In this document: positions 3 to 23,616 of the stretch, piece after piece
Layout: each line of letters starts with the position of its first letter
How positions within the stretch are numbered: the first letter of the stretch is position 1
Virus genome (UHGV): UHGV-1378242
Length of the DNA: 23,616 bases
Reading direction: 5' to 3' (one strand)
DNA from: a virus
The notes under the pieces: generated by a model
Databases searched by the model: none
What the model was told of the DNA's origin: nothing
The model's input: the letters and a program-made list of their open reading frames with translations, nothing else
Program-made: the position numbers and the translations under genes

Positions 3-155
3 CTGATTATCACAAAGGGATATCCGAAGCGCGACGATTCCAGCCGCAGAATTGATATTCCGTATGACGGATATGAAATCAAGACAATCACACATCCCCA
101 CTTCGGCGATAAACCGGTAAAGGTGTTCGCGATAAAGGTGAATATTGATGGCTAA
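3..155 (+). CDS. 3' fragment of an upstream gene whose 5' end lies outside the window; hypothetical protein
   Basis: Frame 3 is open from the window edge to TAA at 153-155 (…GYEIKTITHPHFGDKPVKVFAIKVNIDG*). Its end overlaps the ATG at 148 of the next gene, suggesting translational coupling. Function not recognised. Confidence 0.3.
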   Translation: MIITKGYPKRDDSSRRIDIPYDGYEIKTITHPHFGDKPVKVFAIKVNIDG

Positions 156-486
156 ATCAGCAGCAGAGCGCAAAGCCGCTCAGAGAGCCAGACAAGCTGC
201 ATCTGGTGTGCGTAAGCTGGAAATTGTGCTTGATGCTCAGGAAATTGAAATGCTGGAGCGTAACTGTGCCACGCGTCGCCCCGGGCGTGCGCCTTACGAA
301 TTTGGTGAGTATATAGCGTTACTGATCCGCCAGGATGATGCACGCGTGCACGGGCGTATAAAATCGATCAGCAGAAAACGTTGCGGTAAGTGCGGCGAGA
401 GAGTTCCTGTGAATTCATGCCCGTGTGATGGTGACTCGCAATGCTGGGTGACTAAAGGCTGGCATGAAACGAAATTAATAGTGTGA
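148..486 (+). CDS. Hypothetical small basic protein with a C-terminal Cys cluster (CxxC-x8-CxC-x5-C), putative zinc ribbon
   Basis: ATG at 148 with GGTG 7 nt upstream; the track ORF 145..486 starts 3 nt earlier at TTG. 112 aa. Stop TGA 484-486 lies inside the palindrome GTGACATGTCAC. An intrinsic terminator follows at 536-561. Confidence 0.55.
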   Translation: MAKSAAERKAAQRARQAASGVRKLEIVLDAQEIEMLERNCATRRPGRAPYEFGEYIALLIRQDDARVHGRIKSISRKRCGKCGERVPVNSCPCDGDSQCWVTKGWHETKLIV

Positions 487-494
487 CATGTCAC
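483..494. repeat. Copy 1 of the perfect 12-bp palindrome GTGACATGTCAC
   Basis: Exact 12-mer also at 2748-2759 and 20073-20084. Each copy lies at the 3' end of a transcription unit, next to an intrinsic terminator hairpin. Confidence 0.6.
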
Positions 495-535: not shown

Positions 536-561
536 GCCGCCAACTATGGCGGCTTTATTTT
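536..561 (+). terminator. Rho-independent terminator
   Basis: GCCGCC (536-541), loop AACTAT, GGCGGC (548-553), then TTTATTTT. It sits inside the 5' extension of track ORF 527..1201, arguing that extension is not coding. Confidence 0.65.
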
Positions 562-568
562 GCATGGT

Positions 569-597
569 ACTATTACCACAACGGTAACTATTACCAC
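569..597 (+). repeat. Tandem direct repeat ACTATTACCAC (569-579 and 587-597) in the terS leader
   Basis: Two 11-bp copies 18 bp apart, between the terminator and the likely terS start at 605. Candidate promoter, activator or packaging-recognition element. Confidence 0.4.
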
Positions 598-604
598 GGT
601 GGTT

Positions 605-1201
605 ATGATGCCTGCTGAACCTAAAGCCTATAAACGCAAATCAACGCAATTTAAGCCACTAACAGCAATGCAGGAGGCTTATTGCCAGTCATACATCAAA
701 ACGCCTGAAAACCAGACTCAGGCAGCGATTAACGCAGGATTCTCCCCAAATACAGCGGCAGTTAAAGCCAGTGTCATGATGCGCGATGAACGCATTCAAA
801 AACGGATTGCCGAGTTGATGGAGGAGCGCAACAAACGAATGCGCGTCAGTGCTGATTACGTTCTCATGCGCCTGGTGGAGATCGACCAGATGGACGTGAT
901 CGACATCCTCAACGACGATGGGAGCCTTAAGCCAATCCGCGAGTGGCCGAAAATCTGGCGCACTACGCTTAGTGGCTTTGATCTGTCATCGACCATCATG
1001 AACATGAACGAGGATTCGATAGAGACAATCCTCAAAAAAATTAAATGGCCTGACAAGGTGAAGAACCTCGAACTGATTGGTAAGCACGTCGACGTCAACG
1101 CATTCAAAGAACGCCTGGATGTTAATGTGAATGTGACAATTGCTGATCGCATAGCGGCAGCCAGGAAGAGACTGAAAGAACGTCAGGATGGCAATCAGTG
1201 A
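605..1201 (+). CDS. terS: Terminase small subunit
   Basis: Immediately upstream of terL, with its stop overlapping the terL GTG start. About 198 aa with a helical N-terminal region. Start placed at ATG 605 (GGTGG just upstream) rather than track start 527, because of the terminator and repeats at 536-597. Family assignment is by position and size, not a verified motif. Confidence 0.7.
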   Translation: MMPAEPKAYKRKSTQFKPLTAMQEAYCQSYIKTPENQTQAAINAGFSPNTAAVKASVMMRDERIQKRIAELMEERNKRMRVSADYVLMRLVEIDQMDVIDILNDDGSLKPIREWPKIWRTTLSGFDLSSTIMNMNEDSIETILKKIKWPDKVKNLELIGKHVDVNAFKERLDVNVNVTIADRIAAARKRLKERQDGNQ

Positions 1202-2747: not shown

Positions 2748-2759
2748 GTGACATGTCAC
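2748..2759. repeat. Copy 2 of GTGACATGTCAC
   Basis: Exact 12-mer, 4 bp past the terminator hairpin and 5 bp from the end of the minus-strand ORF 2764..3135. Confidence 0.6.
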
Positions 2760-3329: not shown

Positions 3330-3406
3330 TGGCGTGGCATGCAGGATTCGAACCTGCGACCAACCGCTTAGAAGGCGGTTGCTCTGTCCAACTGAGCTAA
3401 TGCCAC
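3330..3406 (-). tRNA. tRNA-Arg (anticodon UCU, reads AGA), phage-borne argU-like
   Basis: Minus-strand 77 nt: GTGGCAT-TA-GCTC-AGTTGG-AC-AGAGC-A-ACCGC-CTTCTAA-GCGGT-TGGTC-GCAGG-TTCGAAT-CCTGC-ATGCCAC-G-CCA. Perfect 7-bp acceptor stem, D-loop, T-loop GGTTCGAATCC, anticodon loop CU-UCU-AA and encoded CCA. It resembles E. coli argU as I recall it, with compensatory stem changes. Confidence 0.9.
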
Positions 3407-3728
3407 AACGCTGAGAGCACTTAGCCTGTTAAGGCGCCACACTTTGTCGCGGCTCCATAAATGCTCTCATCGTTGTACCCTCGTCTCTTCCGAGGCGTCA
3501 CACCGAATCGCCGGGATGGTGAATCCCCGTGCGCGGAATAAAACCGCTCGACTTGCACATTCCGGCTACCTGGTTCGTTTGCCCGAGCAAGGGAGGGTGC
3601 CCCTTAAACGTATCCAGACCGCTATCGGCGCATGTGCCATACGCCGTACTGCTCAAAATAAAAGCTCACTCCACCTGTTCAATTTAACGACAAGCCAGTC
3701 AGGTTAGTAACCGGAATGAACTCTTTGG

Positions 3729-3744
3729 TTACCTGAAAGGTAAT
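3729..3744. promoter_or_regulatory. Operator-like inverted repeat TTACC-TGAAA-GGTAA (16-mer TTACCTGAAAGGTAAT)
   Basis: The same 16-mer recurs at 22646-22661. It sits in the 430-bp non-coding region between the tRNA and the portal operon, next to palindrome GGTTAGTAACC (3702-3712) and direct repeat GGTAATAATTT (3739-3749, 3801-3811). Confidence 0.45.
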
Positions 3745-3833
3745 AATTTGTGCGTTAAATGTCAACTATCTACGATAAATAAATCATATGTGGTTAAATT
3801 GGTAATAATTTAATTGCGTACGGAGTCATTGAT

Positions 3834-4040
3834 ATGTGCATGGGTAGCTCACCATCAGTGCCTGCAACACCAGAAGTTCAGGCAGCACCACAGGAGCAGG
3901 ATGCCGCCGTTGTTGATGCCCGCGACGAAGAAACACGTCGCCGTCGCGTTGCTGCTGGTCGTAGTTCTACGCTGCTTACCGGTTCTCAGGGCGACACATC
4001 AACCGCTAATACCAGCGGTAAAACGCTGCTTGGTCAGTAA
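3834..4040 (+). CDS. Hypothetical small protein (68 aa) just upstream of portal
   Basis: ATG at 3834 preceded by CGGAGTCATTGA, the same context that precedes the portal ATG. Codon usage is host-like and the stop lies 14 nt before the portal start. Overlapping track ORF 3814..4053 judged spurious. Confidence 0.4.
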   Translation: MCMGSSPSVPATPEVQAAPQEQDAAVVDARDEETRRRRVAAGRSSTLLTGSQGDTSTANTSGKTLLGQ

Positions 4041-13050: not shown

Positions 13051-15563
13051 TGCCTGTTGTTCCTACTACATCCGGACGCCAGGTGCAAAGTCGTGGAGTT
13101 CAGTCAGCAGGCTTGCAGACGTTTTCTCAGCCAGGTATTGGTAATGCTTTTGTTCGGGCAGGGACAGAGGCAATTGATGTTTTTGGTCAGGAAAAACAGC
13201 GTGCCAATATCGCTCTGGCTCAGGAGGCATCTCTTAACCTCAGTCAGATAAGCAGCGATCTGCTGAATAATCCTGAAACAGGATTGCTTAACCTGAAAGG
13301 GAAAAATGCTATTGGAAAAGGCCATGAGTATACGCAGCAGTTTGATGCTCAGGTCGAACAACTGGCTATGTCGCTGCCGGATGAACAGGCTCGTAATGCT
13401 TTCATGCAGCAGGCGCAGCAGCAGCGCATTCAGTTCACTACGCAGGCCGGGAGGTACGAGATAGGGCAAATAAATGCCTACGAAGAAGGCCAGTTTCAGG
13501 CTACGCTGCTGAACAATGGTAAAAATGCCGCAGCATTGTATGGCGACAACGCCGCATACGTATTGGCTAATAAGCAAACTTTCCAGCAAATTGAGGATTA
13601 CGGCATTGCACATGGCTGGAGTGACGAGCAAATCCAGGCCAAGAAAATCGAGTTTAAAGAAGCAACAGCAAAAGCAACTGCTCAAAATGCTATTGGAGCA
13701 AACTATCTTCAGGTAAGACAGCAAAACGGCGAGTTAAGCGATACTGCTGCTGGATCTCGCCGTGCTGTAGCAGATAGTGGCTCTTCCGATCGTACCCGCG
13801 GTATACGCAACAATAACCCCGGCAATCTTGAATACAGCAAAACTAATCCGTGGGTTGGGCAGACTGGTGATGATGGTCGCTTTGCCAAATTCGAAACCCC
13901 TGAACACGGTATTCGTGCATTAGGGCGGAACCTGATGTCGTATCAGCGGCAGGGTATTGATACCGTCAGCGAGATAATTAATCGCTGGGCACCGCCTACT
14001 GATAAAAATGACACTATGTCGTATATCAAAGCAGTGTGCGAACAACTTGGCGTTTCTGCTGATGAGCCTCTCGATGCATCAAATCCTGATACCCTGAAGG
14101 CGCTTTGTGCAGCCATTATCCATCATGAAAACGGTAGCCAGCCATACAGTGATCAGCAGTTAACTGCAGGTGTTAGTGCTGCGCTGGGGCTTTCTCAGCT
14201 ACCGACAAAAAATAAACGTTATACCGGTGTAGCCTGGTTCGATGCTTTAAGTGAATCAGATCAGGCCAGCGTGTTGCGACAGACTGATGCACTAGCCAGA
14301 CAACAGCAGGCTGAATATAAAACGATGCTCGACAGCCGGGTTCGCGATGCGACGGCTGCGTATATGCGTGGCGTTGAATTTCCTAACCCACCTGGTGAGG
14401 ATGATTTTATTGCAGCTTATGGAGTCAGAGAAGGAAACCTGCGATATACCGAGTTTAAGAATACGCAGATCGCCGGACAGTATATAGGCTCTTTCCGCAA
14501 CATGCCGACAAGCAGCATTACAGCATATGTTGAGCAATTACGCCCGGATACTGGTGAAACAGGGGAGGGGTATGCGGCACGCGCAGCTCTTTATGACAAC
14601 GTTGTTTCGGCTGCAAATCAGGTGATAAAGCAGCGGCAGTCGGATCCTGTGCAGTTCTCTCTTGCCTCCGGACAGACAAAGCCTATCGACATGAGCAATA
14701 AGGATAACTTTGGACAGAGCGTTGCCTTGCGTGCCGCTCAGGTCAGTGACCTTGCTAAGTCATATGGCACTCCACTGACGTTCTTTTCCAAAGACGAGGC
14801 CAATCAGATCGGTGTTTTCTTTCGTGATGCTCCAGTTTCCCAACAGGCAGCATATCTCGATACCATCAGGCAGAGCACTGGTGGTGGGCAGGTGTATATG
14901 TCAGCACTACAGCAGATCAGTGCCAACGCTCCATCTGCTGCCGTTGCCGGGATACTGATGGACAAGCCTGGTGGTATTTTGGCAGAAAAAAACTGGTTTA
15001 ATCCGGATGTTTCCGTGTCTCCTGAAACCGCTGCGCAGACAATTCTTGCTGGCGCGGCGGCTCGTAAAGGTACTGATGATGCGAAAGGTATTCCGATGCC
15101 TAAAGATGCTGATCTTCGCCTTGAGTTTTCTGACATGGTGAAGGATGCATTTGCTGGTGATGCTCAGGGGGCATCAATGGCATACGAGATCGCAAAGGAC
15201 TATTACGCTGGTGTGATGGCGAAAAAAGGCGTGATATCAGGTGAAATTGACACTGATATCTGGAAACAGGCTGTTAACGTAGCTACAGGTGGCGTGCATG
15301 ACTATAACGGAATGGGGAATGTCCTTTTGCCGTGGGGAATGTCTGCAGAGCAATTCGATAAGCAGGTTAATCAGGCTTGGAATGAACAAGTTGTCGGCAC
15401 CGGGATAAAAACACCGCCTGGTCAGTATGGTTTGCAAAGTTACGGCGATAGTCAGTATCTGGTGAAACTTGGTACTGGTTATCTGCTGAAAGATGATGGT
15501 TCTCCTGTTGTTCTTGATCTGACACAGAAGCGTCAGAGATTCTCCGGAGATATTCCGCAATGA
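13050..15563 (+). CDS. Putative internal core/ejection protein (837 aa) in the T7 gp15 position
   Basis: Coupled start (TGATG). Contains a conserved-looking block GIRNNNPGNLEY… (from about 13800) that I cannot assign to a family with confidence. Confidence 0.6.
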   Translation: MPVVPTTSGRQVQSRGVQSAGLQTFSQPGIGNAFVRAGTEAIDVFGQEKQRANIALAQEASLNLSQISSDLLNNPETGLLNLKGKNAIGKGHEYTQQFDAQVEQLAMSLPDEQARNAFMQQAQQQRIQFTTQAGRYEIGQINAYEEGQFQATLLNNGKNAAALYGDNAAYVLANKQTFQQIEDYGIAHGWSDEQIQAKKIEFKEATAKATAQNAIGANYLQVRQQNGELSDTAAGSRRAVADSGSSDRTRGIRNNNPGNLEYSKTNPWVGQTGDDGRFAKFETPEHGIRALGRNLMSYQRQGIDTVSEIINRWAPPTDKNDTMSYIKAVCEQLGVSADEPLDASNPDTLKALCAAIIHHENGSQPYSDQQLTAGVSAALGLSQLPTKNKRYTGVAWFDALSESDQASVLRQTDALARQQQAEYKTMLDSRVRDATAAYMRGVEFPNPPGEDDFIAAYGVREGNLRYTEFKNTQIAGQYIGSFRNMPTSSITAYVEQLRPDTGETGEGYAARAALYDNVVSAANQVIKQRQSDPVQFSLASGQTKPIDMSNKDNFGQSVALRAAQVSDLAKSYGTPLTFFSKDEANQIGVFFRDAPVSQQAAYLDTIRQSTGGGQVYMSALQQISANAPSAAVAGILMDKPGGILAEKNWFNPDVSVSPETAAQTILAGAAARKGTDDAKGIPMPKDADLRLEFSDMVKDAFAGDAQGASMAYEIAKDYYAGVMAKKGVISGEIDTDIWKQAVNVATGGVHDYNGMGNVLLPWGMSAEQFDKQVNQAWNEQVVGTGIKTPPGQYGLQSYGDSQYLVKLGTGYLLKDDGSPVVLDLTQKRQRFSGDIPQ

Positions 15564-17104
15564 GTTACTTTGGCCTTAATCCAGTAAACCAGAATCAGCA
15601 GCTTGACGAAGCAGCATCAAATCCAGCGGGATTTAACAGCGATGTTGGTTTTTTCGACAATGCTGTAGGAGCGGCATTGTCTGGTTTGTACTCCGGGCTG
15701 GTGGCAAAGCCAGACCAGTTGCTATGGGCAGGAATGGATAAAATCGTATCCCCGATTGCTCAGTTTGTTAACGAAAACACCTCGTTCAATGATACTTCAG
15801 TTTCATACATTGCCGAGCAGAGAAAACTAGCAGAGCAGCAGGTTAAGCGGTTGACGCCTGATGCCGCGACAACCGGAACCGCCGGGCAGGTTCTTTATGG
15901 GTTGTTCGATATGGGCGGACAGGCTGTTGTCGGTTCAGCATTAGCAGGGCCGATTGGTGGCGCAGCCGCAGTTACCTCTCTTCAGGGATTCTCTGAATTT
16001 GAGCGCCTGTCCGCTCAGGGTGTTGATTTCAGGACGGCGCAGGAAGCGGGATTAGTGCAGGGTATTACTGCTGGTGCCGGAACACTGATCCCTATGAGCC
16101 TCGGGTTACGTGCTGGTGGTGTCGGCAGATTTATGAACTCTCGCGGCGAGTCTACAAGCGCACCAAATTTTGCACCAGTTGATATCGATGCTGCACTGGC
16201 GGCGAATGCCGCTCATCATGCTGAAATTGATATTGCTCCCGGCGTTCCGATCAACGTGCTTTCGCGTAATTCGCACATTCAGGCTCTGCGAAAAGCCATG
16301 TCTGATGTTAGCCAGGGGAGACCTGTAGACGTTGCCAGCATTGTTGAGTCTGCATCTTTCAGTGAAATTCCTGGGCGCAAGAGTCTGCTGTCTCAGGCAG
16401 TTAATGAGGCTCTGTCATCTGTAGATGATGGAGTAACGGCGCGCGCTATAGAAAATCGGTTGCTTGAAGAACAGGCCGCGCAGCTTTTGCCGCGTGGCGA
16501 TAGACAGGTTTACCAGTCTGAAATCGCTAATAGCCAACGAATTATTGAAAATCTCACTGAACAGCGCGCACAAATTCTTGCAGAAGAGCCAACCGGTAGC
16601 GGTAAGGCTTTATCTCGTGCTCGATCAGATAAACAGGCCAGACTTCGCGATATTGACCAACGAATCCGGCAGGCACAAGAACGCTTGGAATTTTCCCGTA
16701 ACGCGTTGGCACCGCATGAGCCTGGCGGTCAGTTTTTTGAAGCTCGAGCAGAACTGGCACGGCGACAGCAGGCAGAAAGTGAACTTAATGCTCAGGCTGT
16801 TTCATTCTATAAAACAGCAGAGGTCAGGACGCCAGACGAAGTAGCTCCTTTTGAGCCCGGTAAGATATTGCAACAGACAGAACAAAAAATGATGTCAGAT
16901 CAGGCAGGAGATATTGATCTGCGCATAGCTGAAGACTCGCTGCTTGAATCACCTGACATGATAATCACCGTGCTGGATGATGATGGTAATCCACAATCGC
17001 GCAGTGCGCGTGAAGTACTGGATGAAACGAACAGGGAAAGTGAGCAGGCAATACAGGATTCCAGCCTGTTTGATGTCGCTGTGGCGTGTTTCTTGAGAGG
17101 TTAA
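15560..17104 (+). CDS. Putative internal virion/ejection protein (514 aa)
   Basis: Start overlaps the upstream stop (ATGA). Charged, coiled-coil-like C-terminal half. Confidence 0.55.
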   Translation: MSYFGLNPVNQNQQLDEAASNPAGFNSDVGFFDNAVGAALSGLYSGLVAKPDQLLWAGMDKIVSPIAQFVNENTSFNDTSVSYIAEQRKLAEQQVKRLTPDAATTGTAGQVLYGLFDMGGQAVVGSALAGPIGGAAAVTSLQGFSEFERLSAQGVDFRTAQEAGLVQGITAGAGTLIPMSLGLRAGGVGRFMNSRGESTSAPNFAPVDIDAALAANAAHHAEIDIAPGVPINVLSRNSHIQALRKAMSDVSQGRPVDVASIVESASFSEIPGRKSLLSQAVNEALSSVDDGVTARAIENRLLEEQAAQLLPRGDRQVYQSEIANSQRIIENLTEQRAQILAEEPTGSGKALSRARSDKQARLRDIDQRIRQAQERLEFSRNALAPHEPGGQFFEARAELARRQQAESELNAQAVSFYKTAEVRTPDEVAPFEPGKILQQTEQKMMSDQAGDIDLRIAEDSLLESPDMIITVLDDDGNPQSRSAREVLDETNRESEQAIQDSSLFDVAVACFLRG

Positions 17105-17109
17105 ATTAA

Positions 17110-19584
17110 ATGAGACAGGAATGTATACAAGCGGTCCAGCAGGCGGCGCAGCGCACGTTAACGGCGCGAGAAATACAGAACATTGAAGACCGCATTTATC
17201 GCAATATGCGCTCCATTGCTCGTGATGACCCTATGTCGTGGCGACAACTTTCCGAGTCAGAGCGGCTGTATCGTGCAGCACAATTGGCATCTGAAGAATT
17301 ACAGCGAGAAGCGGCATTAAAGAAACGTCGTGTGGCTCTTACTATAGCCGCACGTCAGAGATTGGATAAATTTATCAATAGCTATCAAGGGGCTGATGGG
17401 AAACTTGGCGCTCTTAACCGTACTATTGCTTTTAATGCAGACGGTAAATCGAATTTCCTCTCTGTTGAGTCCAGAACAAAAGCCACTCGTGATTATGCAT
17501 TGAGTCAATTGCAGGAGGCATTCGAAGCAGTTGATCCTCGCTTTTTTGGCCTGTTTGAAGATGAAGCGGGCGTGCGTGACCTGGTATATGAAATGCGAGG
17601 GCAAAATACTGGCAATGCTAAAGCAAGAAAAGGTGCTAAGGCGTGGAGAGAAGTGACAGATCTACTCCGCCGCCGGTTTAATGATGCTGGTGGGGACATT
17701 GGCTATCTCGAAAACTGGGGGATCCCTCAACATCATTCTATGGAAAAGGTTGGGGCGGTATCAAAAGATAAATGGGTTAGCGATGTTATAGGTAAGCTGG
17801 ATCGCAAATATTATACCCGAGCCGATGGACAACTGATGAACGATGCCGAGTTGTCTGCATTTCTTGGAGAGGCTTATAACACGATCGCTACTGGTGGGCT
17901 GAATAAGCTTACTGATACCGGAATGCGAATTTCCGGCGCACGTGCTAACCGTGGTAATGCATCACGACAGATACATTTCAAAGATGCAGATTCCTATCTG
18001 CAATATCAGCAACTTTATGGCGATCGCTCTCTATGGGAAATCATGGTCGGTCACCTGGAAGGTATCAGTAAAGATATTGCACTGGTGGAAACATATGGCC
18101 CAAACCCCGATCATGTTTTCCGCTCCCTTCTTGATCAGGTTAAGGCAGAAACGGCAACAGCTAACCCGAGTAAAACCGGTAAAGTCGAGCGGCTGGCGAA
18201 CAACACAGAGAATCTGTACAACTTTATTTCTGGAAAGACACAGCCTGTAGCGAATCCGCACATCGCGCGATGGTCTGACAATATCCGCAACTGGCTGGTT
18301 GCCAGCAGACTCGGATCCGCGTTGCTGTCATCGTTCTCTGATCTTGGAACCATGTATCTGTCTGCGAAGGTTACCAACCTTCCAATGAACCAGTTATTCC
18401 GCAACCAGCTTGAAGCTATGGACCCAACGAACCGTACAGAACTTGCGCGGGCGCGCCGCGCTGGTCTGGCGATGGAATCTCTACTTGGCAGCGTTAACCG
18501 CTGGGCGATGGATAATATGGGGCCGTCAGTGTCTCGTTGGGCGGCAACGGCCGTAATGCGTGCCAGTGGGCTTACAGCATGGTCAGATGCGCACAAGCGC
18601 GCCTATGGCGTAACCATGATGGGAAGCCTGGGAGAAGTAGTGTCACGGACACCAGACCTTCGTAGCCTCGATGACTCTGATTTTCGTATCCTGAAAAGCA
18701 AAGGGATTACTGACACAGACTGGAGCGTATGGAAGCTGGCGCAACAGGAGGACTGGGGGAACGGTAATAATACGATGCTGACACCGGAAAGCATTATGCG
18801 TATCCCTGATTCAGCAGTTAAACATCTTGGTGAGCCTGAACGAGTGAAATTTGAGGCAATGCGTAAACTGCTCGGTGCCGTAACTGAAGAAGTTGATATG
18901 GCTGTTATTACACCGGGAGCACGTGAGCAACTGATAACCGGTTCTGGTATTCAGCGTGGAACATGGAAAGGTGAATTAACGAGAAGTGTTTTCCTGTTTA
19001 AATCGTTCCCTATCTCGGTTGTTATGCGTCACTGGTCACGCGCTATGGGTATGCCGTCTGCTGGTGGGCGTGCGGCATATATTGCGACGTTTATTGCCAG
19101 TACGACCATTCTTGGCGCTTTGTCGCAGCAACTTAACGACCTTGCGTCTGGTCGTAATCCTCGAGAGATGACAGGAGAAGGTGCCGCAAAATTCTGGCTT
19201 GGTGCTCTACTGAAAGGTGGTGGCCTTGGCCTTTACGGTGACTTTTTATTGTCAGATCACACTAGGTACGGAAGCGGCGCGCTGGCGTCGATGCTTGGCC
19301 CGGTAGCTGGTCTGGTTGATGACGTAGTGAAGATTGCTCAGGGCATACCGTTAAATGCTGTGGAAGGGAAGAGTGAGCAGACTGGTGGTGATCTGGTGAA
19401 GCTGGGGAAAGGTTTGATGCCAGGTGCGAATCTCTGGTACTTAAAGGCGGCTCTCGATCATATGATCTTGAACCAGATGCAGGAGTATTTTTCACCAGGC
19501 TATTTGCGTAAAATGGAGCAACGTTCGAAGAAAGAGTTTAATCAGACATACTGGTGGCGACCTCAGGATGTCACTCCGCAATAA
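17110..19584 (+). CDS. Putative internal virion/ejection protein (824 aa)
   Basis: Together with the 514-aa ORF it totals roughly the length of T7 gp16 (about 1300 aa). Last large gene of the operon. Confidence 0.6.
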   Translation: MRQECIQAVQQAAQRTLTAREIQNIEDRIYRNMRSIARDDPMSWRQLSESERLYRAAQLASEELQREAALKKRRVALTIAARQRLDKFINSYQGADGKLGALNRTIAFNADGKSNFLSVESRTKATRDYALSQLQEAFEAVDPRFFGLFEDEAGVRDLVYEMRGQNTGNAKARKGAKAWREVTDLLRRRFNDAGGDIGYLENWGIPQHHSMEKVGAVSKDKWVSDVIGKLDRKYYTRADGQLMNDAELSAFLGEAYNTIATGGLNKLTDTGMRISGARANRGNASRQIHFKDADSYLQYQQLYGDRSLWEIMVGHLEGISKDIALVETYGPNPDHVFRSLLDQVKAETATANPSKTGKVERLANNTENLYNFISGKTQPVANPHIARWSDNIRNWLVASRLGSALLSSFSDLGTMYLSAKVTNLPMNQLFRNQLEAMDPTNRTELARARRAGLAMESLLGSVNRWAMDNMGPSVSRWAATAVMRASGLTAWSDAHKRAYGVTMMGSLGEVVSRTPDLRSLDDSDFRILKSKGITDTDWSVWKLAQQEDWGNGNNTMLTPESIMRIPDSAVKHLGEPERVKFEAMRKLLGAVTEEVDMAVITPGAREQLITGSGIQRGTWKGELTRSVFLFKSFPISVVMRHWSRAMGMPSAGGRAAYIATFIASTTILGALSQQLNDLASGRNPREMTGEGAAKFWLGALLKGGGLGLYGDFLLSDHTRYGSGALASMLGPVAGLVDDVVKIAQGIPLNAVEGKSEQTGGDLVKLGKGLMPGANLWYLKAALDHMILNQMQEYFSPGYLRKMEQRSKKEFNQTYWWRPQDVTPQ

Positions 19585-19593
19585 GGAAGTGTT

Positions 19594-19767
19594 GTGTTTT
19601 TAATTATTTTGAGTGTGATAATTTCTGGTGGGTTGTTATTTATTGACCGCTACAAATATTTTCTTAACCCTCAGACTCAAGCTATTTGCTGGTTCATCTT
19701 TGTTGTGCAGGGAATAGTTCTTGTTGCAAGCCTTATTGAGGGGAGGCCTCTGATTTTTACTGGGTAA
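19594..19767 (+). CDS. Small hydrophobic protein (57 aa, two predicted TM segments)
   Basis: GTG start 4 nt after AAGGAA. Absent from the ORF track, probably because it is under 60 aa. Start codon and reality uncertain. Confidence 0.35.
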   Translation: MFLIILSVIISGGLLFIDRYKYFLNPQTQAICWFIFVVQGIVLVASLIEGRPLIFTG

Positions 19768-19779
19768 ATAGGTGACTAC

Positions 19780-20076
19780 ATGCAAGCGATAGGATTCATT
19801 GTTTATATCGTCGTTGGCCTTTTTCAGTTGGCAGCAATTATGGCTGGGCTTGAATCATGGTGGGGATTGCACTGGATAATTGCAGCCCCCATTGCTTTCA
19901 TCGTGAGCTATATTCCATTTGTTGGAGCGATTGTTGGTATGGTTGGTGCTGTGGATGTATGGCGGTGGGAGTGGTGGCAGGCTGGCCTTCTCTTCTTTGG
20001 TGGGATCATCTTTGCTATTGTCTGCGGTGGAATGTCATCATTTTTCGAACGGCTATCATTCAGAAAAGGAACGTGA
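19780..20076 (+). CDS. Small integral membrane protein (98 aa, about three TM segments, charged C-terminus), holin-like topology
   Basis: ATG with AGGTGA upstream. Very hydrophobic and Trp-rich. Last gene before the operon terminator. Stop TGA lies inside palindrome copy 3. Confidence 0.55.
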   Translation: MQAIGFIVYIVVGLFQLAAIMAGLESWWGLHWIIAAPIAFIVSYIPFVGAIVGMVGAVDVWRWEWWQAGLLFFGGIIFAIVCGGMSSFFERLSFRKGT

Positions 20077-20084
20077 CATGTCAC
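20073..20084. repeat. Copy 3 of GTGACATGTCAC
   Basis: Exact 12-mer, 2 bp upstream of the late-operon terminator hairpin. Confidence 0.6.
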
Positions 20085-20085
20085 A

Positions 20086-20110
20086 GGCCGCTTTCGCGGC
20101 CTTGTTTTTA
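20086..20110 (+). terminator. Rho-independent terminator closing the late structural operon
   Basis: GGCCGC (20086-20091), loop TTTC, GCGGCC (20096-20101), then TTGTTTTTA. Confidence 0.75.
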
Positions 20111-20269
20111 ACGAATGCCACCGCCGCCCGGGCGGGAATCCGCAGAACGCCCACCGCAGCGGGAGCCGTCAGCGGCGGTATCGCTGTCGTGCTGACAACG
20201 ACCGGCAAAGGCCTGAGTTGAAGCTACCAGAGACAACAAAACGAACAGTGCAGCAAATGCTTTTTTCAT
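20108..20269 (-). CDS. Secreted micro-protein (53 aa) with a classical signal peptide and two Cys in the mature part
   Basis: MKKAFAALFVLLSLVASTQAFA then GRCQHDSDTAADGSRCGGRSADSRPGGGGIR. Charged n-region, hydrophobic core and an AxA-type cleavage site. Host-like codons (CTG, CGT, GGT). Candidate own promoter TTGACG-N16-TATAGA upstream. The track shows it only as part of the longer 77-aa ORF 20108..20341. Confidence 0.45.
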   Translation of the reverse strand: MKKAFAALFVLLSLVASTQAFAGRCQHDSDTAADGSRCGGRSADSRPGGGGIR

Positions 20270-20340
20270 TGTGACATTTCCATCTATAAGCCACCTCAAT
20301 GTGGCGTCAATGAGTGTAGCACTGACTTTTGTTTCGTCCA

Positions 20341-20362
20341 CAAAAAAGCCCGCAGCGCGGGC
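20341..20362 (-). terminator. Rho-independent terminator for the minus-strand operon
   Basis: On the minus strand: stop TAA, then GCCCGC-GCT-GCGGGC, then TTTTTTG. Confidence 0.7.
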
Positions 20363-20911
20363 TTACTTTTCTTCAGGTTTGTTGTCTTCAGATTTCTTCT
20401 TGATGCTTGGTTTTTGTCTAAGAACGAAAATACCAGCCACTGCAACAACTGTACCGATCACTGTGCCAGCTAGAACTTCATGACCTGTTAAACCTAATAA
20501 TGTTGCACAAGCTACTGTAAAAATAGTTGCACTCAGGCCAAACCACTGCCCACGTTTATCTCTATTAATAGCCCCGTCAAGTGCCTTTTCCTCCATTTTC
20601 TGGCGGTGAGCAAACTCCTTCTCCGTCAGCTGGAAGATGCGTTCGGGGGCATCAGGTAAAATATCCTGATACCCGCGAAGCAGATAGGGGGGAGGAAGCG
20701 GACCCTGAAACGCATGGTGAGCGACAACTATCTCCTGAATTTCAGGGCGATCAAGAACTCTTGTGAAGGCATCTGGGTGTTGAATGATCTCGTTACTTAG
20801 CCCTTCCTCAACTTCCTCGAACTCAGTTTCTTCGTTATCACTTGGTTGCCCAATAGATTTTTGCATATTTGTCGAAGGACATTCCTTTAGCTTCTGGTTT
20901 TCCTCTTGCAT
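20363..20911 (-). CDS. Membrane protein (182 aa): acidic soluble N-terminal domain and two C-terminal TM helices; function unknown
   Basis: TM segments WFGLSATIFTVACATLLGL and VLAGTVIGTVVAVAGIFVL, then a Lys-rich tail. Its 5' end overlaps the upstream 108-aa gene out of frame by 74 nt, or 29 nt if Met16 at 20866 is the start. Confidence 0.6.
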   Translation of the reverse strand: MQEENQKLKECPSTNMQKSIGQPSDNEETEFEEVEEGLSNEIIQHPDAFTRVLDRPEIQEIVVAHHAFQGPLPPPYLLRGYQDILPDAPERIFQLTEKEFAHRQKMEEKALDGAINRDKRGQWFGLSATIFTVACATLLGLTGHEVLAGTVIGTVVAVAGIFVLRQKPSIKKKSEDNKPEEK

Positions 20912-21164
20912 TTGAGTTTTTCCCTGTCACTATTGCCCATTTTCCGCCAGCAGGCGCTGCAATTTTTTTTCCGTTCTTTACTATATATTCAGCATAAACA
21001 CGATTTTCTGACCGTCTGAGATCGTCTCCGACCATATTCATGTCTCTTGATATAACTTTGACGACAGAGTCTCGGTTTAAAGCCTTGGCATAGTTGGAGC
21101 CAGGAACGATACCCAAAGGGGTGCCAGACTCTATAGCCAGCTCCTTGACATATCTTCTGCTCAT
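20838..21164 (-). CDS. Hypothetical soluble protein (108 aa), first gene of the minus-strand operon
   Basis: ATG at 21164; the track's TTG start at 21179 is less likely. Basic, Lys/Gly-rich C-terminal half. Operator-like TTACC-N5-GGTAA lies in its leader. Confidence 0.55.
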   Translation of the reverse strand: MSRRYVKELAIESGTPLGIVPGSNYAKALNRDSVVKVISRDMNMVGDDLRRSENRVYAEYIVKNGKKIAAPAGGKWAIVTGKNSNARGKPEAKGMSFDKYAKIYWATK

Positions 21165-21185
21165 ATGAACCTCAACCAATCGACT

Positions 21186-21200
21186 TTACCAATCGGGTAA
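21186..21200. promoter_or_regulatory. Operator-like inverted repeat TTACC-AATCG-GGTAA
   Basis: Same arms as the 16-mer at 3729 and 22646. Sits 20-35 bp upstream of the 108-aa gene start. A TATAAT-like hexamer is at 21214-21219. Confidence 0.4.
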
Positions 21201-21242
21201 TTTTAAACATGAGTATAATGCTTTTAACTGCAACGAGTGTAA

Positions 21243-21277
21243 ACAATTATTGATAATTGTAGGCACATCCATGTGCC
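21243..21277. promoter_or_regulatory. Two adjacent palindromes, ACAATTAT-TG-ATAATTGT and GGCACAT-CC-ATGTGCC
   Basis: Both are perfect inverted repeats, located between the Bro-N gene stop (21286) and the promoter region of the 108-aa operon. Candidate operator and/or weak terminator. Confidence 0.35.
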
Positions 21278-21285
21278 GCCGCTCG

Positions 21286-21996
21286 TCAGAAGAACCCTGC
21301 CTTGTCGTTGATGTACTCCGCGTGGGTCTGGATATCACGCAGGCATTTGCTCACACCGACGATGTAGCAGAACATGGTGGTCAGCTCCGCCGCCGCGCCC
21401 GATACGTCATGCCCGTCTTCCTGTAACTGGTTCAGCAAATTCATCAGCAGTGAGTTCTCCGTCAGGCCGAGAACACCCGACGGCGAGTGAATCAAACTGC
21501 GGTAGCCGGGCTTCAGCGGGGCGCTGTAGGTTTTGTTCTCTATCTTCATCGCCTGCATTACTGCTGATGCTGTGGCGTTGGCTACCTGGTCGGCAACCAT
21601 CTTTATGCGTTCTTCCTGCGGGAGCGAGTTTTTAATGTAGCTTCCGGTGCGGCGGATCTGAGGAAGAACCTCACCTGTAACCCATTTACGAAAGCGGTAG
21701 GGGATAGTGCCTGGTGTCACTGCGTCGCGGCAGCGGAGGATCAGTGTGTAGAGGCCTGACTCGGAGATAATGTTGATCTCTTTTACTCGGCTGTCAAAAA
21801 TTGCACGATGTTCATGCCCTATGTTGAACATAGACCTTTCATCATCATCCAGTTTTTCAAGTGCTTGGGTGACGTTTTGGATACGCAGCGCACTACAAAC
21901 GTCTTGGGCTACAAACCATGGTTGGCCATCGATAATGATGGAACGGATAGGGTTAACAGATTCAAATTTGAAGATGGCAGTTTGAGCATTAGCCAT
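21286..21996 (-). CDS. Bro-N family antirepressor-like protein
   Basis: N-terminal FKFESVNPIRSIIIDGQPWFVAQDVCSALRI… fits the Bro-N pattern. Start taken at ATG 21996 (GGAG 9 nt upstream) rather than GTG 22011. The C-terminal ~65 aa are homologous to the 85-aa protein at 22312..22569. Confidence 0.8.
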   Translation of the reverse strand: MANAQTAIFKFESVNPIRSIIIDGQPWFVAQDVCSALRIQNVTQALEKLDDDERSMFNIGHEHRAIFDSRVKEINIISESGLYTLILRCRDAVTPGTIPYRFRKWVTGEVLPQIRRTGSYIKNSLPQEERIKMVADQVANATASAVMQAMKIENKTYSAPLKPGYRSLIHSPSGVLGLTENSLLMNLLNQLQEDGHDVSGAAAELTTMFCYIVGVSKCLRDIQTHAEYINDKAGFF

Positions 21997-22014
21997 GGTG
22001 GTTATCTCCACTTA

Positions 22015-22028
22015 GTGATTTTAATCAC
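22015..22028. promoter_or_regulatory. Palindrome GTGATT-TT-AATCAC over the putative -10 of the Bro-N gene
   Basis: Perfect 14-bp inverted repeat 19 bp upstream of the Bro-N ATG. The minus-strand TAAAAT hexamer lies inside it. Its GTGA-N6-TCAC core loosely resembles a CRP-type site. Confidence 0.35.
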
Positions 22029-22142
22029 CACCGCAACGCCAATTACTGGTGGTGAACTGGACAAGGTTGGCGTACCGGCCTAAGTGGTACCGGCGTCCTT
22101 TCGGACCCCTGCCCAGCCCACCATAATTCGGATATAGCTGTG

Positions 22143-22164
22143 CTTAACGCATAAAAAAACCACG
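22143..22164 (-). terminator. Candidate intrinsic terminator after the 85-aa gene
   Basis: Minus strand: CCACG-CCAGA-CGTGG followed by TTTTTTT. The stem is short (5 bp). Further hairpins lie upstream at 22181-22225. Confidence 0.4.
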
Positions 22165-22263
22165 TCTGGCGTGGTATGCGCCACTTAGTAACCCGGGACG
22201 CCAATCCCGGCACTGGATTTTGCCAGTGCCCGATTACTATGGCACAAGAGGAGTGCGATGTAA

Positions 22264-22282
22264 ATTTACCGCAAAGGTAAAT
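22264..22282. promoter_or_regulatory. Inverted repeat ATTTACC-GCAAA-GGTAAAT nested in a longer hairpin
   Basis: Variant of the TTACC-N5-GGTAA motif, bracketed by the 8-bp inverted repeat AGGAGTGC…GCACTCCT (about 22244-22292). Confidence 0.4.
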
Positions 22283-22311
22283 ATAAGCACTCCTATTGGT
22301 AATTTCAAATC

Positions 22312-22569
22312 TTATCTGGTTTGTTTTCGTAATTGTTCGGCACAATAGTCGAGATGTGTTTGCAGATCCTGCATAGACATCTGTGAGCTGGTGACGTAGT
22401 TAATCAGTGCAGTCAGTTCGGCAAGTGGGCCATCGACATTAAATCCATCCTTATCGAGATCCCGGAGTAATTTCATCAAGTGCGATCCCTCCACCAGTGA
22501 CCTGACGCCTCCCGGCGTGTGAATCCTTTCGGTAAATCCGTCTTCCAGTGGATAGTGATACTGCTGCAT
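22312..22569 (-). CDS. Small LexA-controlled protein (85 aa), antirepressor-like, paralogous to the C-terminal domain of the Bro-N protein
   Basis: ATG 22569 with GGAGAA upstream; the track ORF is N-terminally over-extended. Aligns with the Bro-N C-terminus on IH-P-GV, LM-LL, AELT and QTH-Y. A LexA box lies 20-40 bp upstream. Confidence 0.6.
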   Translation of the reverse strand: MQQYHYPLEDGFTERIHTPGGVRSLVEGSHLMKLLRDLDKDGFNVDGPLAELTALINYVTSSQMSMQDLQTHLDYCAEQLRKQTR

Positions 22570-22588
22570 CTTATCTTCTCCATGCAAT

Positions 22589-22608
22589 AACTGTATATTT
22601 ATACAGTA
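22589..22608. promoter_or_regulatory. LexA (SOS) box
   Basis: AACTGTATATTTATACAGTA matches the consensus TACTGTATATATATACAGTA at 18 of 20 positions, with perfect CTGT-N8-ACAG. Positioned over the putative promoter of the minus-strand 85-aa gene, in the divergent region shared with the tailspike gene. Confidence 0.7.
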
Positions 22609-22644
22609 GCAAATAATTTGTTTGCTATCCAGCACGTTTTGCAA

Positions 22645-22661
22645 ATTACCTGAAAGGTAAT
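22645..22661. promoter_or_regulatory. Operator-like inverted repeat ATTACC-TGAAA-GGTAAT
   Basis: Contains the 16-mer TTACCTGAAAGGTAAT identical to 3729-3744. About 40 bp upstream of the LexA box. A half-site-like CAGGTAAT follows at about 22706-22713. Confidence 0.45.
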
Positions 22662-22764
22662 ATCTATTCGTATTTACAGTCTTTCTATCCATATGTGGTT
22701 TTTCAGGTAATAGAATAACCAGATATGCGGCGCAACGGGTGCTGCGACTATCTGGAGATTTAAC

Positions 22765-23616
22765 ATGACGGTCTCAACCGAAGTTGACCACAACGAATAC
22801 ACCGGTAACGGCGTTACGACATCGTTTCCGTATACTTTTCGAATTTTCAGAAAATCAGACCTGGTTGTTCAGGTGTCTGACCTGAACGGGAACGTAACAG
22901 AATTGGTTCTGGATACCGGTTATACGGTAACTGGGGCGGGCACTTATAGTGGCGGTTCTGTGGTTCTTCCGTCTCCGCTTGCTACTGGATGGCGAATTAC
23001 GATAGATCGTGTGCTTGATGTAGTGCAGGAGACAGACCTTCGCAATCAGGGAAAATTTTTCCCCGAAGTGCATGAAGATGCCTTTGACTACCTGACGATG
23101 CTGATCCAGCAATGTTTTGGGTGGTTCAGACGTGCATTGATGAAACCATCTTTGCTTGCAAAATATTACGATGCAAAGCAAAACAAAATTTCTAACCTTG
23201 CAGATCCATCATTTGAGCAGGACGCTGTAAATAATCGCTCAATGCGTAATTATGTCGATGCTGCAATCGCCGGGGTTGTTGGTGGTTTTGGTTGGTTTAT
23301 TCAGTATGGTTCTGGGGCTGTGTACCGAACGTTCCAGGATAAAATGCGTGATGCTATTAGCCCCAAAGATTTTGGAGCTGTTGGTGATGGTATAAATGAC
23401 GATTCCACTGCAATAAGCGCGTGCCTTGAAGCCTCATCTCCAGGTTATAAAATTGACGGATTAGGGCTTACTTTTAAAGTATCAACTCTTCCGGATGTCA
23501 GTCGATTTAAAAATGCTCGTTTTTTATTTGAGAGAATACCGGGCCAGCCTCTTTTTTATGCTTCTGAAGATTTTATCCAGGGAGAGTTATTTAAAATTAC
23601 AGATACACCGTGGTAC
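22765..23616 (+). CDS. Tailspike / tail fibre with predicted pectate-lyase-like beta-helix (probable polysaccharide depolymerase); 3' end outside the window
   Basis: ATG 22765 with GGAG 7 nt upstream; open to the window end, so not in the ORF track. N-terminus MTVSTEVDHNEYTGNGVTTSFPYTFRIF… looks like a podovirus particle-binding domain. KDFGAVGDGINDDSTAI is the hallmark start of a pectate-lyase-type beta-helix. Confidence 0.8.
   Translation, partial: MTVSTEVDHNEYTGNGVTTSFPYTFRIFRKSDLVVQVSDLNGNVTELVLDTGYTVTGAGTYSGGSVVLPSPLATGWRITIDRVLDVVQETDLRNQGKFFPEVHEDAFDYLTMLIQQCFGWFRRALMKPSLLAKYYDAKQNKISNLADPSFEQDAVNNRSMRNYVDAAIAGVVGGFGWFIQYGSGAVYRTFQDKMRDAISPKDFGAVGDGINDDSTAISACLEASSPGYKIDGLGLTFKVSTLPDVSRFKNARFLFERIPGQPLFYASEDFIQGELFKITDTPWY

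Follow-up and report, generated by a model that had tools for sequence, protein, structure and literature searches.

The stretch of phage DNA analysed here (the window; 23,616 nucleotides of the virus genome UHGV-1378242) contains the 16-mer TTACCTGAAAGGTAAT at 3729-3744 and, letter for letter, again at 22646-22661. This raises the question of what recognises one palindrome at two loci 19 kb apart, and what the two loci share. A sequence-only reading had reported this pair together with variants at 21186-21200 (TTACCAATCGGGTAA) and 22264-22282 (ATTTACCGCAAAGGTAAAT). All four sites were found again, and they are intergenic, as that reading had stated, by the PGAP annotation of the matching prophage. 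Its list was incomplete, however, as it missed a site with perfect arms at 573-587 and a further one at 591-605, in which one arm position is mismatched. The pattern TTACC-N5-GGTAA thus has five perfect sites in the window (573, 3729, 21186, 22266, and 22646), where 0.03 would be expected, and in two shuffle runs each shuffled sequence contained at most one or two. A chance origin was rejected on the grounds of this over-representation. The spacing is strict: perfect arms separated by 0-4 or 6-11 nucleotides gave no match in the window, where only the 5-nucleotide spacer occurs. From these sites the operator consensus is a 17-bp palindrome, aTTACC-t-n-W-n-a-GGTAAt. Between the 3729 and 22646 loci the identity covers 17 nucleotides (TTACCTGAAAGGTAATA) and then ends, so that the pair does not represent a duplicated segment, and this is the sole repeat of at least 16 nucleotides in the window. 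Chance alone would produce about 0.13 pairs of identical 16-mers, which is less extreme than the earlier reading had judged, and the statistical weight therefore lies with the family of sites and not with one exact pair. TGAAA is the commonest spacer at portal-type and tail-type sites alike across the relatives, which explains why the 3729 and 22646 sites are identical in the window. The only sites that are not intergenic in the PGAP annotation are the pair near terS, which falls inside a long terS model with a TTG start, yet upstream of the ATG start that is used in epsilon15, SPC32H, Tyrion, and phiv142-3. Text searches on the letters of the motif returned only primer lists.

The window belongs to an epsilon15/phiV10-like (Uetakevirus) prophage of E. 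coli, of which it spans the arm from terS to the tail fibre. In megablast searches, the Escherichia phages HEMP4, phiv142-3, phiV10, and ZX5 were 97% identical to the window, and Enterobacter phage Tyrion and Salmonella phage epsilon15 were 76-81% identical; all six belong to the genus Uetakevirus. The left end of the window carries the last early-right gene (145-486), followed by terS/terL and a tRNA-Arg gene (Table 1). To the right of the latter follow the gp3-portal-head-tail operon, a variable accessory island, and the start of the tail-fibre gene at 22765. Positions 19500-23616 are 100% identical to prophages of several human extraintestinal E. coli strains, which include SF-468 and the cerebrospinal-fluid isolate EC69. 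Their tail fibre is an endosialidase, and their integration site is the 3' end of guaA. The phage of the window is a member of the E. coli phiV10 branch, with K1-type extraintestinal E. coli as its host.

Table 1. Predicted operators and neighbouring features of the window (positions counted from its first nucleotide).
Feature	Position	Strand	Remarks
113-aa Cys-rich protein	145-486		Just upstream of terS; phrog_536 'transcriptional regulator' family, 1.4e-54
Strong terminator	536-553		The 573/591 pair falls between it and the terS ATG
Predicted Rep operator TTACCACAACGGTAA, perfect arms	573-587		Upstream of terS ATG at 608
Second predicted operator TTACCACGGTGGTTA, one arm mismatch	591-605		Tandem to 573, 18 bp centre to centre
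tRNA-Arg	3330-3406	minus	
Predicted Rep operator TTACCTGAAAGGTAAT	3729-3744		90 bp upstream of gp3-like ATG at 3834
Conserved box AATCATATGTGGTTAAATTGGTAATAA, candidate late-promoter element	3782-3808	plus	Centre-to-centre distance to the 3729 operator 53 bp
DUF2335 membrane protein	20363-20911	minus	Same leftward accessory operon as the 108-aa ORF
108-aa ORF	20838-21164	minus	
Predicted Rep operator TTACCAATCGGGTAAT (TTACCAATCGGGTAA at 21186-21200)	21186-21201		22 bp upstream of the 108-aa ORF
Predicted leftward promoter TTTACA-17-CATTAT	21243-21215		At the 21186 site
Predicted leftward promoter TTAAAA-16-TAAAAT	21227-21200		At the 21186 site
Second antirepressor, Bro-N plus C-terminal Ant-like domain	21286-21996	minus	Pfam Bro-N 9.6e-20
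C4-type antisense RNA	22045-22128	minus	Rfam RF01695, 66 bits (gathering score 45)
isrK-like Hfq-binding sRNA	22153-22229	minus	Rfam RF01394, 67.7 bits (gathering score 50)
Predicted Rep operator ATTTACCGCAAAGGTAAAT	22264-22282		Upstream of the isrK/C4-RNA/Bro-N module
ant, 85-aa antirepressor, predicted Rep-inactivating partner	22312-22569	minus	PDB 5D50 chain E, 'Anti-repressor protein' of SPC32H
LexA (SOS) box CTGTATATTTATACAG	22591-22606		Overlaps the predicted ant -10
Predicted Rep operator ATTACCTGAAAGGTAAT	22645-22661		Divergent region between ant (minus) and the tail-fibre gene (plus)
Conserved box, second copy ATCCATATGTGGTTTTTCAGGTAATAG	22687-22713	plus	Precedes the tail-fibre gene; distance to the 22646 operator 41 bp
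Tail-fibre gene	ATG 22765	plus	

The sequence-only reading did not recognise the palindrome as a known operator. However, the RefSeq record of epsilon15 (NC_004775.2) contains seven 'protein_bind: repressor / lysogeny' features, each of which reads ATTACC-N5-GGTAAT, and for the repressor and antirepressor of phage SPC32H solved structures are available (PDB 5D4Z, 5D50). Three of the seven annotated epsilon15 sites are syntenic with sites of the window: the one upstream of terS (annotated as 'repressor' at 12-27) with the 573 site, the one upstream of gp3 (2931-2947) with the 3729 site, and the one in the gap between gp19 (ant) and the tail-fibre gene (19895-19911) with the 22646 site. The others are grouped next to the repressor gene and behind the replication genes. 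The equivalent of the second, tandem site near terS reads TTACTTCGGTGGTAA in epsilon15. Being 17-bp palindromes with a strict 5-bp spacer at positions that match the annotated epsilon15 sites, those of the window group with the epsilon15-like Rep operators. The motif search across the prophage and its relatives that the earlier reading had proposed showed that the motif is not absent from homologous loci. Complete genomes of six relatives (phiV10, epsilon15, SPC32H, phiv142-3, Tyrion, and HEMP4) contain 8-11 perfect sites each, in the same places, and the arms are invariant across these genomes while the letters of the spacer vary. The sites stand ahead of nearly every transcription unit and on either side of rep, and the predicted PL and PR promoters overlap with them as well. 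Besides its counterpart in epsilon15, the 573 site is kept in phiV10, SPC32H, Tyrion, and HEMP4, and the 22266 site in phiV10 (20497), phiv142-3 (5138), HEMP4 (34783), and Tyrion (21393). The site between ant and the tail-fibre gene has one arm mismatch (TCACC) in phiV10 and HEMP4 and hence is not indispensable. In alignments of the portal and tail-fibre regions, the similarity among Escherichia, Enterobacter, and Salmonella phages starts exactly at the operator. An unbiased footprint of the 3729 site was obtained from IMG/VR sequences retrieved solely by a 30-mer located 56 bp downstream of the operator, which yielded 82 distinct upstream sequences. All 82 have perfect arms at a fixed offset, and here too conservation begins exactly at the operator.

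The full extent of the putative regulon became apparent in the complete 40-kb prophage of strain SF-468, which has 10 perfect sites and four with one mismatch, all intergenic save the terS pair as noted above. No site was found in about 7 kb of chromosome flanking this prophage. Two sites, 62 bp apart, lie upstream of the leftward early operon (OL), and the proximal one overlaps the -10/+1 region of a predicted promoter with a perfect TTGACA. Two more occupy the gap between rep and the cro-like gene, one of them within the spacer of a predicted promoter (TTGTTA-17-TATTAT). A further site follows the cro-like gene, one is located upstream of int, and another two, again 62 bp apart, follow the replication genes; the window holds the other six. 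Outside the rep/cro region there are at least 10 of the 14 sites, some of them ahead of structural and accessory operons. The regulon is much larger than the link between portal operon and accessory island that the earlier reading had proposed.

The presumed binder, Rep, is encoded outside the window, about 5 kb to its left, and is a two-domain HTH protein (194 aa in the SF-468 prophage; WP_000836290.1). The phiV10-type Rep aligns over its full length to the repressor of SPC32H (PDB 5D50_A; 4e-42). The Reps of the phiV10 branch, including SF-468, and of epsilon15/SPC32H are 42% identical and retain the stretch NLVNRW in the N-terminal HTH. In the SF-468 prophage, rep has four sites around it that overlap the predicted PL and PR promoters, an arrangement typical of an immunity repressor (and of Cro). 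Around rep, the TTACC/GGTAA arms persist in elements whose Reps are 42-61% identical (epsilon15/SPC32H, Klebsiella BUCT711, Pseudocitrobacter, and Pseudescherichia; 45-61% for the last three). A tblastn search of phage records provided one informative distant case, the cI of a Pseudomonas phage (PseuP_224), whose N-terminal domain is 39% identical and whose gene is flanked by three TTACC-N4-GGTAA sites. This points to a half-site that follows the DNA-binding domain and a spacing that follows the rest of the protein. The N-terminal domain of Rep alone, used as a homology query, returned 12 near-identical fragments. The location of the sites around rep, their overlap with the predicted PL and PR promoters, and the epsilon15 annotation support the earlier idea of a regulon under a single protein that recognises a specific DNA sequence, and this protein is most probably the prophage repressor. 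It had been assumed that the binder is dimeric, but Rep is described as binding palindromic DNA as a tetramer, which is broken up by tetrameric Ant (PMC9638917, a secondary source). In phage ZX5, which is 97% identical to the window and has an identical Rep, overexpression of Rep decreased holin and endolysin mRNA by 99.97-99.99%; that study defined no operators (PMC9782041).

Several of the operators coincide with predicted promoters. The 21186 operator overlaps or just follows the -10 elements of two overlapping leftward sigma70-like promoters, which are predicted to serve the 108-aa ORF (20838-21164) and the DUF2335 protein (20363-20911). The operator at 22266 overlaps the -10/+1 region of a predicted leftward promoter, TTGAAA-17-TATATT (22308-22280; 10/12 matches), and abuts the -35 element of another one, TTTACA-17-CATAGT (22264-22236). 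The 3729 site precedes the gp3-like gene (ATG 3834), which is the head of the portal/structural operon, and is associated with a predicted promoter in the leftward direction. This promoter has a perfect -35 element TTGACA (3765-3760), a 17-bp spacer, and a -10 element TACCTT (3742-3737, minus strand) that falls inside the right arm of the operator, and the corresponding TGTCAA (3760-3765) is kept in at least 98% of the 82 distinct IMG/VR sequences. These predicted hexamers suggest a Rep-controlled leftward promoter towards tRNA-Arg. As the operator overlaps the predicted core promoter at PL, PR, 22266, and 21186, simple occlusion is likely at these four places.

A candidate for the protein that releases Rep is encoded between two of the operators. 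The Ant of the window matches PDB 5D50 chain E over 83 aligned residues with few substitutions (E 4.1e-47), and its gene is syntenic with the ant of SPC32H (19676-19936). The putative ant promoter consists of a -10 element TACTGT (22608-22603) and a -35 element TGGATA (22631-22626). The LexA box (CTGT-N8-ACAG) and a TATCCAG block are invariant in all seven genomes (7/7). It has been described that ant is under LexA control and that Ant production follows LexA cleavage (PMC7380047, citing Kim & Ryu 2013). Prophages of the phiV10 type within Uetakevirus are induced by a DNA-damaging microcin (bioRxiv 10.64898/2026.05.26.727859). Homology and the invariant LexA box suggest that the Ant of the window likewise is a partner of Rep under LexA control. 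In the neighbouring module, the isrK-like sRNA is the first element downstream of the operator-controlled predicted promoter at 22266, and the C4-type RNA, which resembles that of the P1/P7 immI region, sits between the operator-overlapped predicted promoter (22308-22280) and the Bro-N gene. The Bro-N protein matches phrog_130 'anti-repressor Ant' (8e-57) and, with its residues 153-234, the Ant family phrog_450 (4e-36), and it shares 42% identity with the small Ant over 74 aa. Because this protein has an Ant-like C-terminal domain and its gene sits behind a Rep operator, its role may be that of a feed-forward step in induction, as these features suggest.

These observations would best be explained as a whole if the palindromes are operators of Rep, the lysogeny repressor, in the Rep-Ant-LexA circuit of an epsilon15/phiV10-like prophage, a reading to which we assign a probability of about 0.85. 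The present analysis established the motif with its statistics, positions, and conservation, showed that Rep and Ant are homologous to the proteins of SPC32H, and located the LexA box; that the motif is a repressor site, and the mode of action of Ant, are taken from annotation and the literature. We infer the promoter assignments, that late operons are repressed directly, and that the Bro-N protein acts in a feed-forward manner. In the lysogen, Rep would occupy one or two sites heading nearly every phage transcription unit. Within the window, these units would comprise terS-terL, the gp3-portal-structural operon, the predicted leftward promoter towards tRNA-Arg, the 108-aa ORF/DUF2335 operon, the isrK/C4-RNA/Bro-N module, and the divergent region between ant and the tail-fibre gene. 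Outside the window, Rep would bind at PL, PR, the region after cro, and the region after the replication genes. Where the operator overlaps the -10/+1 region or lies within the promoter spacer, as predicted for PL, PR, 22266, 21186, and the leftward promoter at 3729, Rep would block RNA polymerase. Upon DNA damage, LexA would leave the SOS box in front of ant and Ant would be made, bind Rep, and remove it from the DNA, so that all units would be derepressed together. Among these would be the Bro-N-type second antirepressor, which might reinforce the switch.

A different distribution of roles would result if the sites were bound mainly by the 76-aa Cro-like protein, which would then damp the early and accessory promoters during lytic growth. 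Its gene is divergent from rep, with operators in between, and the product belongs to the phrog_35 'transcriptional repressor' family (5.6e-13). In lambdoid switches, Cro and CI share operators. Binding by the Cro-like protein would, however, be compatible with binding by Rep and complement it. Moreover, the Pseudomonas phage cI shows the half-site going together with a Rep-type N-terminal domain, and the annotators of epsilon15 assigned the sites to the repressor. We therefore regard the Cro-like protein as the main binder as somewhat unlikely but worth serious consideration. That it shares the same sites with Rep is probable, and an assignment to Rep only would be too narrow. Much less can be said for an activator of late genes, for example the Cys-rich protein encoded at 145-486, acting on the portal, tail-fibre, and accessory operons, although the sequence-only reading had offered a late regulator as its alternative to the repressor. 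Three sites are indeed located upstream of late operons (terS, portal, and tail fibre), and the 145-486 product falls into a 'transcriptional regulator' family and is encoded where late regulators often sit. However, the motif occurs at early and antirepressor promoters as well as at late ones: it is present on both sides of rep and after the cro-like gene, and it overlaps core elements of the predicted promoters PL and PR and the -10/+1 region of the predicted promoter of the antirepressor module, all of which are places for a repressor and not for an activator. The element that is specific to late operons is another one, CATATnnGGTT-N5-GGTAATA. A late-activator site was rejected, as the motif is neither restricted to late promoters nor placed upstream of the promoter core, and this role is very improbable.

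The palindromes could also act as RNA, in the form of hairpins in 5' leaders that serve processing, attenuation, or translational control. Each site is able to fold into a hairpin of 7 bp (-5.5 to -5.9 kcal/mol; z -1.9 to -2.7), and several are close to start codons (573/591 and 21186). Yet these hairpins are weak, and several sites are located upstream of or inside predicted core promoters, so that no transcript would carry them in one piece. In addition, the arms are invariant in the 82 distinct relatives and across genera with zero compensatory changes, which points to base-specific recognition. The weak folds and the lack of compensatory change led us to reject an RNA-hairpin role, which appears even more improbable than a late activator. 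The least probable reading of all is that a host protein binds the sites or that they are an artefact of chance or composition. To our knowledge, no E. coli regulator has a TTACC-N5-GGTAA consensus. Both versions were rejected, being at odds with the number of sites in the window (5 against 0.03 expected, at strict spacing), with the contrast between 10 perfect sites in the 40-kb prophage and zero in the sampled flanking chromosome, and with the co-occurrence of the motif and the Rep family in Escherichia, Salmonella, Enterobacter, Klebsiella, Pseudocitrobacter, and Pseudescherichia.

Operators of Rep in a Rep-Ant-LexA circuit add nothing new in principle, as both the motif and the circuit are already known from epsilon15 and SPC32H. 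The genome paper of epsilon15 is Kropinski et al. 2007 (Virology 369:234), and the Rep-Ant switch of Salmonella phage SPC32H is attributed to Kim & Ryu 2013 (J Virol 87:11775) and Kim et al. 2016 (PNAS 113:E2480). With epsilon15, the phage of the window shares the palindrome ATTACC-N5-GGTAAT, its syntenic positions, and the clusters beside the repressor gene. In contrast, the Rep of epsilon15 is only 42% identical to that of the window's branch, and epsilon15 has neither the isrK/C4/Bro-N module nor the 108-aa/DUF2335 operon, both of which are predicted to be operator-controlled in the window. As far as could be ascertained, the epsilon15 sites are annotations and not footprints. SPC32H resembles the window in its homologous Rep (4e-42) and Ant (4e-47), in the location of ant beside the tail-spike gene and behind a LexA box, and in its 10 perfect TTACC-N5-GGTAA sites in the same places. 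However, SPC32H has the small Ant only, whereas the prophage of the window adds a Bro-N/Ant fusion under a predicted operator of its own. What is added here are homologous instances in an E. coli K1 prophage and two extra operator-controlled accessory units. The palindromes would mark the predicted Rep-controlled promoters of a phiV10-like prophage, which chiefly settles annotation and flags accessory genes that would be silent in the lysogen, namely those of the DUF2335 operon, the Bro-N antirepressor gene, and those of the isrK/C4 RNAs. Such information helps to predict immunity groups and whether prophages that share a cell will induce each other.

Dispersed operators of this kind are not without precedent. 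In phage P1, the C1 repressor acts through many operators scattered over the genome, and the immI region has the order c4-icd-ant. The window resembles P1 in that one repressor would use scattered sites and not only OL/OR, and it resembles immI in having an antirepressor gene preceded by a C4-type antisense RNA and a predicted repressor-controlled promoter. In P1, however, the operators are 17-mers without symmetry whose sequence is unrelated, and C1 has no kinship with Rep, whereas the operator of the window is a symmetric palindrome for an HTH repressor and lacks the asymmetry of the P1 sites. Coliphage 186 (Tum) and the Gifsy prophages also have an uncleaved repressor that responds to SOS through a small, LexA-repressed antirepressor (PMC7380047), but their repressor and antirepressor families and their operator sequences are unrelated. 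Lambda-type CI/Cro sets differ from the prophage of the window in that their operators are confined to OL/OR.

How Rep might affect the late units is less clear than its predicted action at the early and accessory promoters. By eye, no convincing rightward sigma70 promoter overlaps the 3729 or 22646 operators; candidates at both sites were rejected, as they had only 2-4/6 hexamer matches and were unconserved between genera. Both operators are accompanied by a conserved box, which is not a Rep operator. At 3782-3808, about 40 nucleotides are 100% identical in seven genomes whose coding DNA is 76-97% identical. The gap between operator and box is 41 bp at the portal operon, fixed in 46 distinct sequences, and 29 bp at the tail-fibre gene (50/51 distinct sequences). 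The box, whose consensus CATATnnGGTT-N5-GGTAATA is specific to late operons, consists of a near-palindrome, AACCATATATGGTT, followed by GGTAATA; it is not a sigma70 promoter and has no annotated binder. A diverged third copy is located upstream of the lysis genes in phiV10, epsilon15, SPC32H, and Tyrion. If the box serves as a late promoter, the operator would precede the start by roughly 65-80 bp, a distance that does not correspond to classical occlusion. Given this distance and the lack of an overlapping rightward sigma70 promoter, direct repression of the late operons remains our inference, and Rep might affect these units by acting as a roadblock at terS, by looping to the box, or only indirectly. 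One speculative and rather doubtful scheme is that operator and box form a two-part switch of fixed geometry, in which the box would represent a late-promoter or activator site of a kind not yet described, perhaps for the 145-486 protein, and Rep tetramers would silence it from a distance by bridging the operator to the GGTAA half-site of the box. If so, the repressor would control late genes directly by looping, unlike in lambda-type phages. The 145-486 protein gave no Pfam match and no PDB sequence match, and its AlphaFold2 model is poor (mean pLDDT 62, pTM 0.40). A further conserved palindrome, GTGACATGTCAC, is present in three copies, which are located at the 3' ends of transcription units.

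The Rep operators (TTACC-N5-GGTAA palindromes) are accompanied by another conserved element, in which the near-palindrome AACCATATATGGTT precedes GGTAATA; its spacing to the operators is fixed. The copy upstream of the portal operon is 100% identical across approximately 40 nt in all seven epsilon15-like genomes compared, and further copies lie 44 bp (centre-to-centre) from the Rep operator at the epsilon15 lysis locus and 42 bp from that at the isrK/Bro-N promoter. When up to three mismatches are allowed, phiV10 contains eight matches to the element versus 1.8 expected. Unlike a sigma70 promoter in appearance, the element may serve as a late promoter or as the site of an activator.

The operators themselves also occur in pairs. 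A distance of exactly 62 bp (centre-to-centre) recurs both at OL and in the region that follows the replication genes, and the pair in the rep/cro-like intergenic region is separated by 48 bp. Such spacing is consistent with a tetrameric repressor that bridges two sites. Similar sites, TTACC-N4-GGTAA, flank the cI repressor gene of Pseudomonas phage PseuP_224 (positions 1422, 1461, and 2323). They share the half-site of the Rep operators, but their spacer is shorter by one base; the N-terminal domain of the PseuP_224 cI is related as well (39% identity). A predicted leftward promoter that overlaps the portal operator precedes the gene of a tRNA-Arg, which may be under Rep control.

Features of the window and related genomes (spacings are centre-to-centre)
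Feature	Genome	Position	Remarks
AACCATATATGGTT element, portal copy	window	3782-3808	53 bp from Rep operator
AACCATATATGGTT element, tail-fibre copy	window	22687-22713	41 bp from Rep operator
AACCATATATGGTT element	phiV10	24736	
AACCATATATGGTT element	epsilon15	24748	
AACCATATATGGTT element	SPC32H	24826	
AACCATATATGGTT element	Tyrion	26452	
62-bp operator pairs	SF-468 prophage (L009)	10007/10069, 13068/13130	
62-bp operator pairs	phiV10	31953/32015, 35070/35132	
62-bp operator pairs	Tyrion	34195/34257, 37265/37327	
Predicted leftward promoter, TTGACA-17-TACCTT	window	3737-3765	-10 inside 3729 operator
tRNA-Arg(UCU)	window	3330-3406 (minus)	~320 nt downstream of predicted leftward promoter
LexA box CTGTATATTTATACAG, consensus	window	22591-22606	overlaps predicted -10 of ant promoter
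GTGACATGTCAC copy 1	window	483-494	overlaps stop codon of 145-486 gene; beside intrinsic terminator 536-553
GTGACATGTCAC copy 2	window	2748-2759	after terL, just beyond stop of minus-strand Gp49-family gene; adjoins intrinsic terminator 2743-2724 (minus)
GTGACATGTCAC copy 3	window	20073-20084	overlaps stop of ORF 19780-20076; adjoins intrinsic terminator 20085-20102
Tail fibre, K1-capsule-specific endosialidase	window	22765-23616	
Tail fibre, K1-capsule-specific endosialidase	SF-468 prophage (L009)	38321-41440	

The LexA box in front of ant is invariant in all seven genomes. The C-terminal domain of the Bro-N antirepressor (21286-21996, minus strand) is homologous to the small Ant (22312-22569, minus strand; 42% identity over 74 aa, family phrog_450), and the prophage therefore encodes two Ant-type proteins, one controlled by LexA and the other by a Rep operator. 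Between the predicted promoter under this operator and the Bro-N gene, Rfam models identify two RNAs in tandem (22045-22229, minus strand), an isrK-like sRNA of the Hfq-binding type and an antisense RNA of the C4 type, and a terminator-like hairpin is found within this stretch (22175-22159). The isrK/C4/Bro-N module resembles the arrangement in immI of P1, here in an epsilon15-like podophage.

A perfect 12-bp palindrome, GTGACATGTCAC, is present three times in the window, in each case at the 3' end of a transcription unit and beside an intrinsic terminator. It is kept at syntenic sites in epsilon15, SPC32H, Tyrion, phiV10, HEMP4, and the SF-468 prophage, and the epsilon15 annotation lists no feature for it. 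Read in either direction, the palindrome contains the -35-like hexamer GTGACA. The palindrome may be bound by a regulator close to terminators, or it may mark the boundaries of modules.

The gene at 145-486 is located directly upstream of terS, a frequent place of late regulators. Its 113-aa product has a basic N-terminal helix and belongs to phrog_536, a family labelled "transcriptional regulator". Sequence searches against Pfam and PDB retrieved no matches, and the AlphaFold2 model is poor (pLDDT 62). Five invariant cysteines (C80, C83, C92, C94, and C100) together with H107 suggest that the protein may bind zinc.

The homologue of phiV10 gp19 (15560-17104) has 514 aa, versus 600 aa in phiV10, phiv142-3, and the SF-468 prophage. 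Over this gene, the offset of window coordinates relative to those of the SF-468 prophage changes by 258 bp, which is consistent with an in-frame deletion. E. coli isolates from human blood and cerebrospinal fluid carry the prophage integrated at the guaA 3' end.
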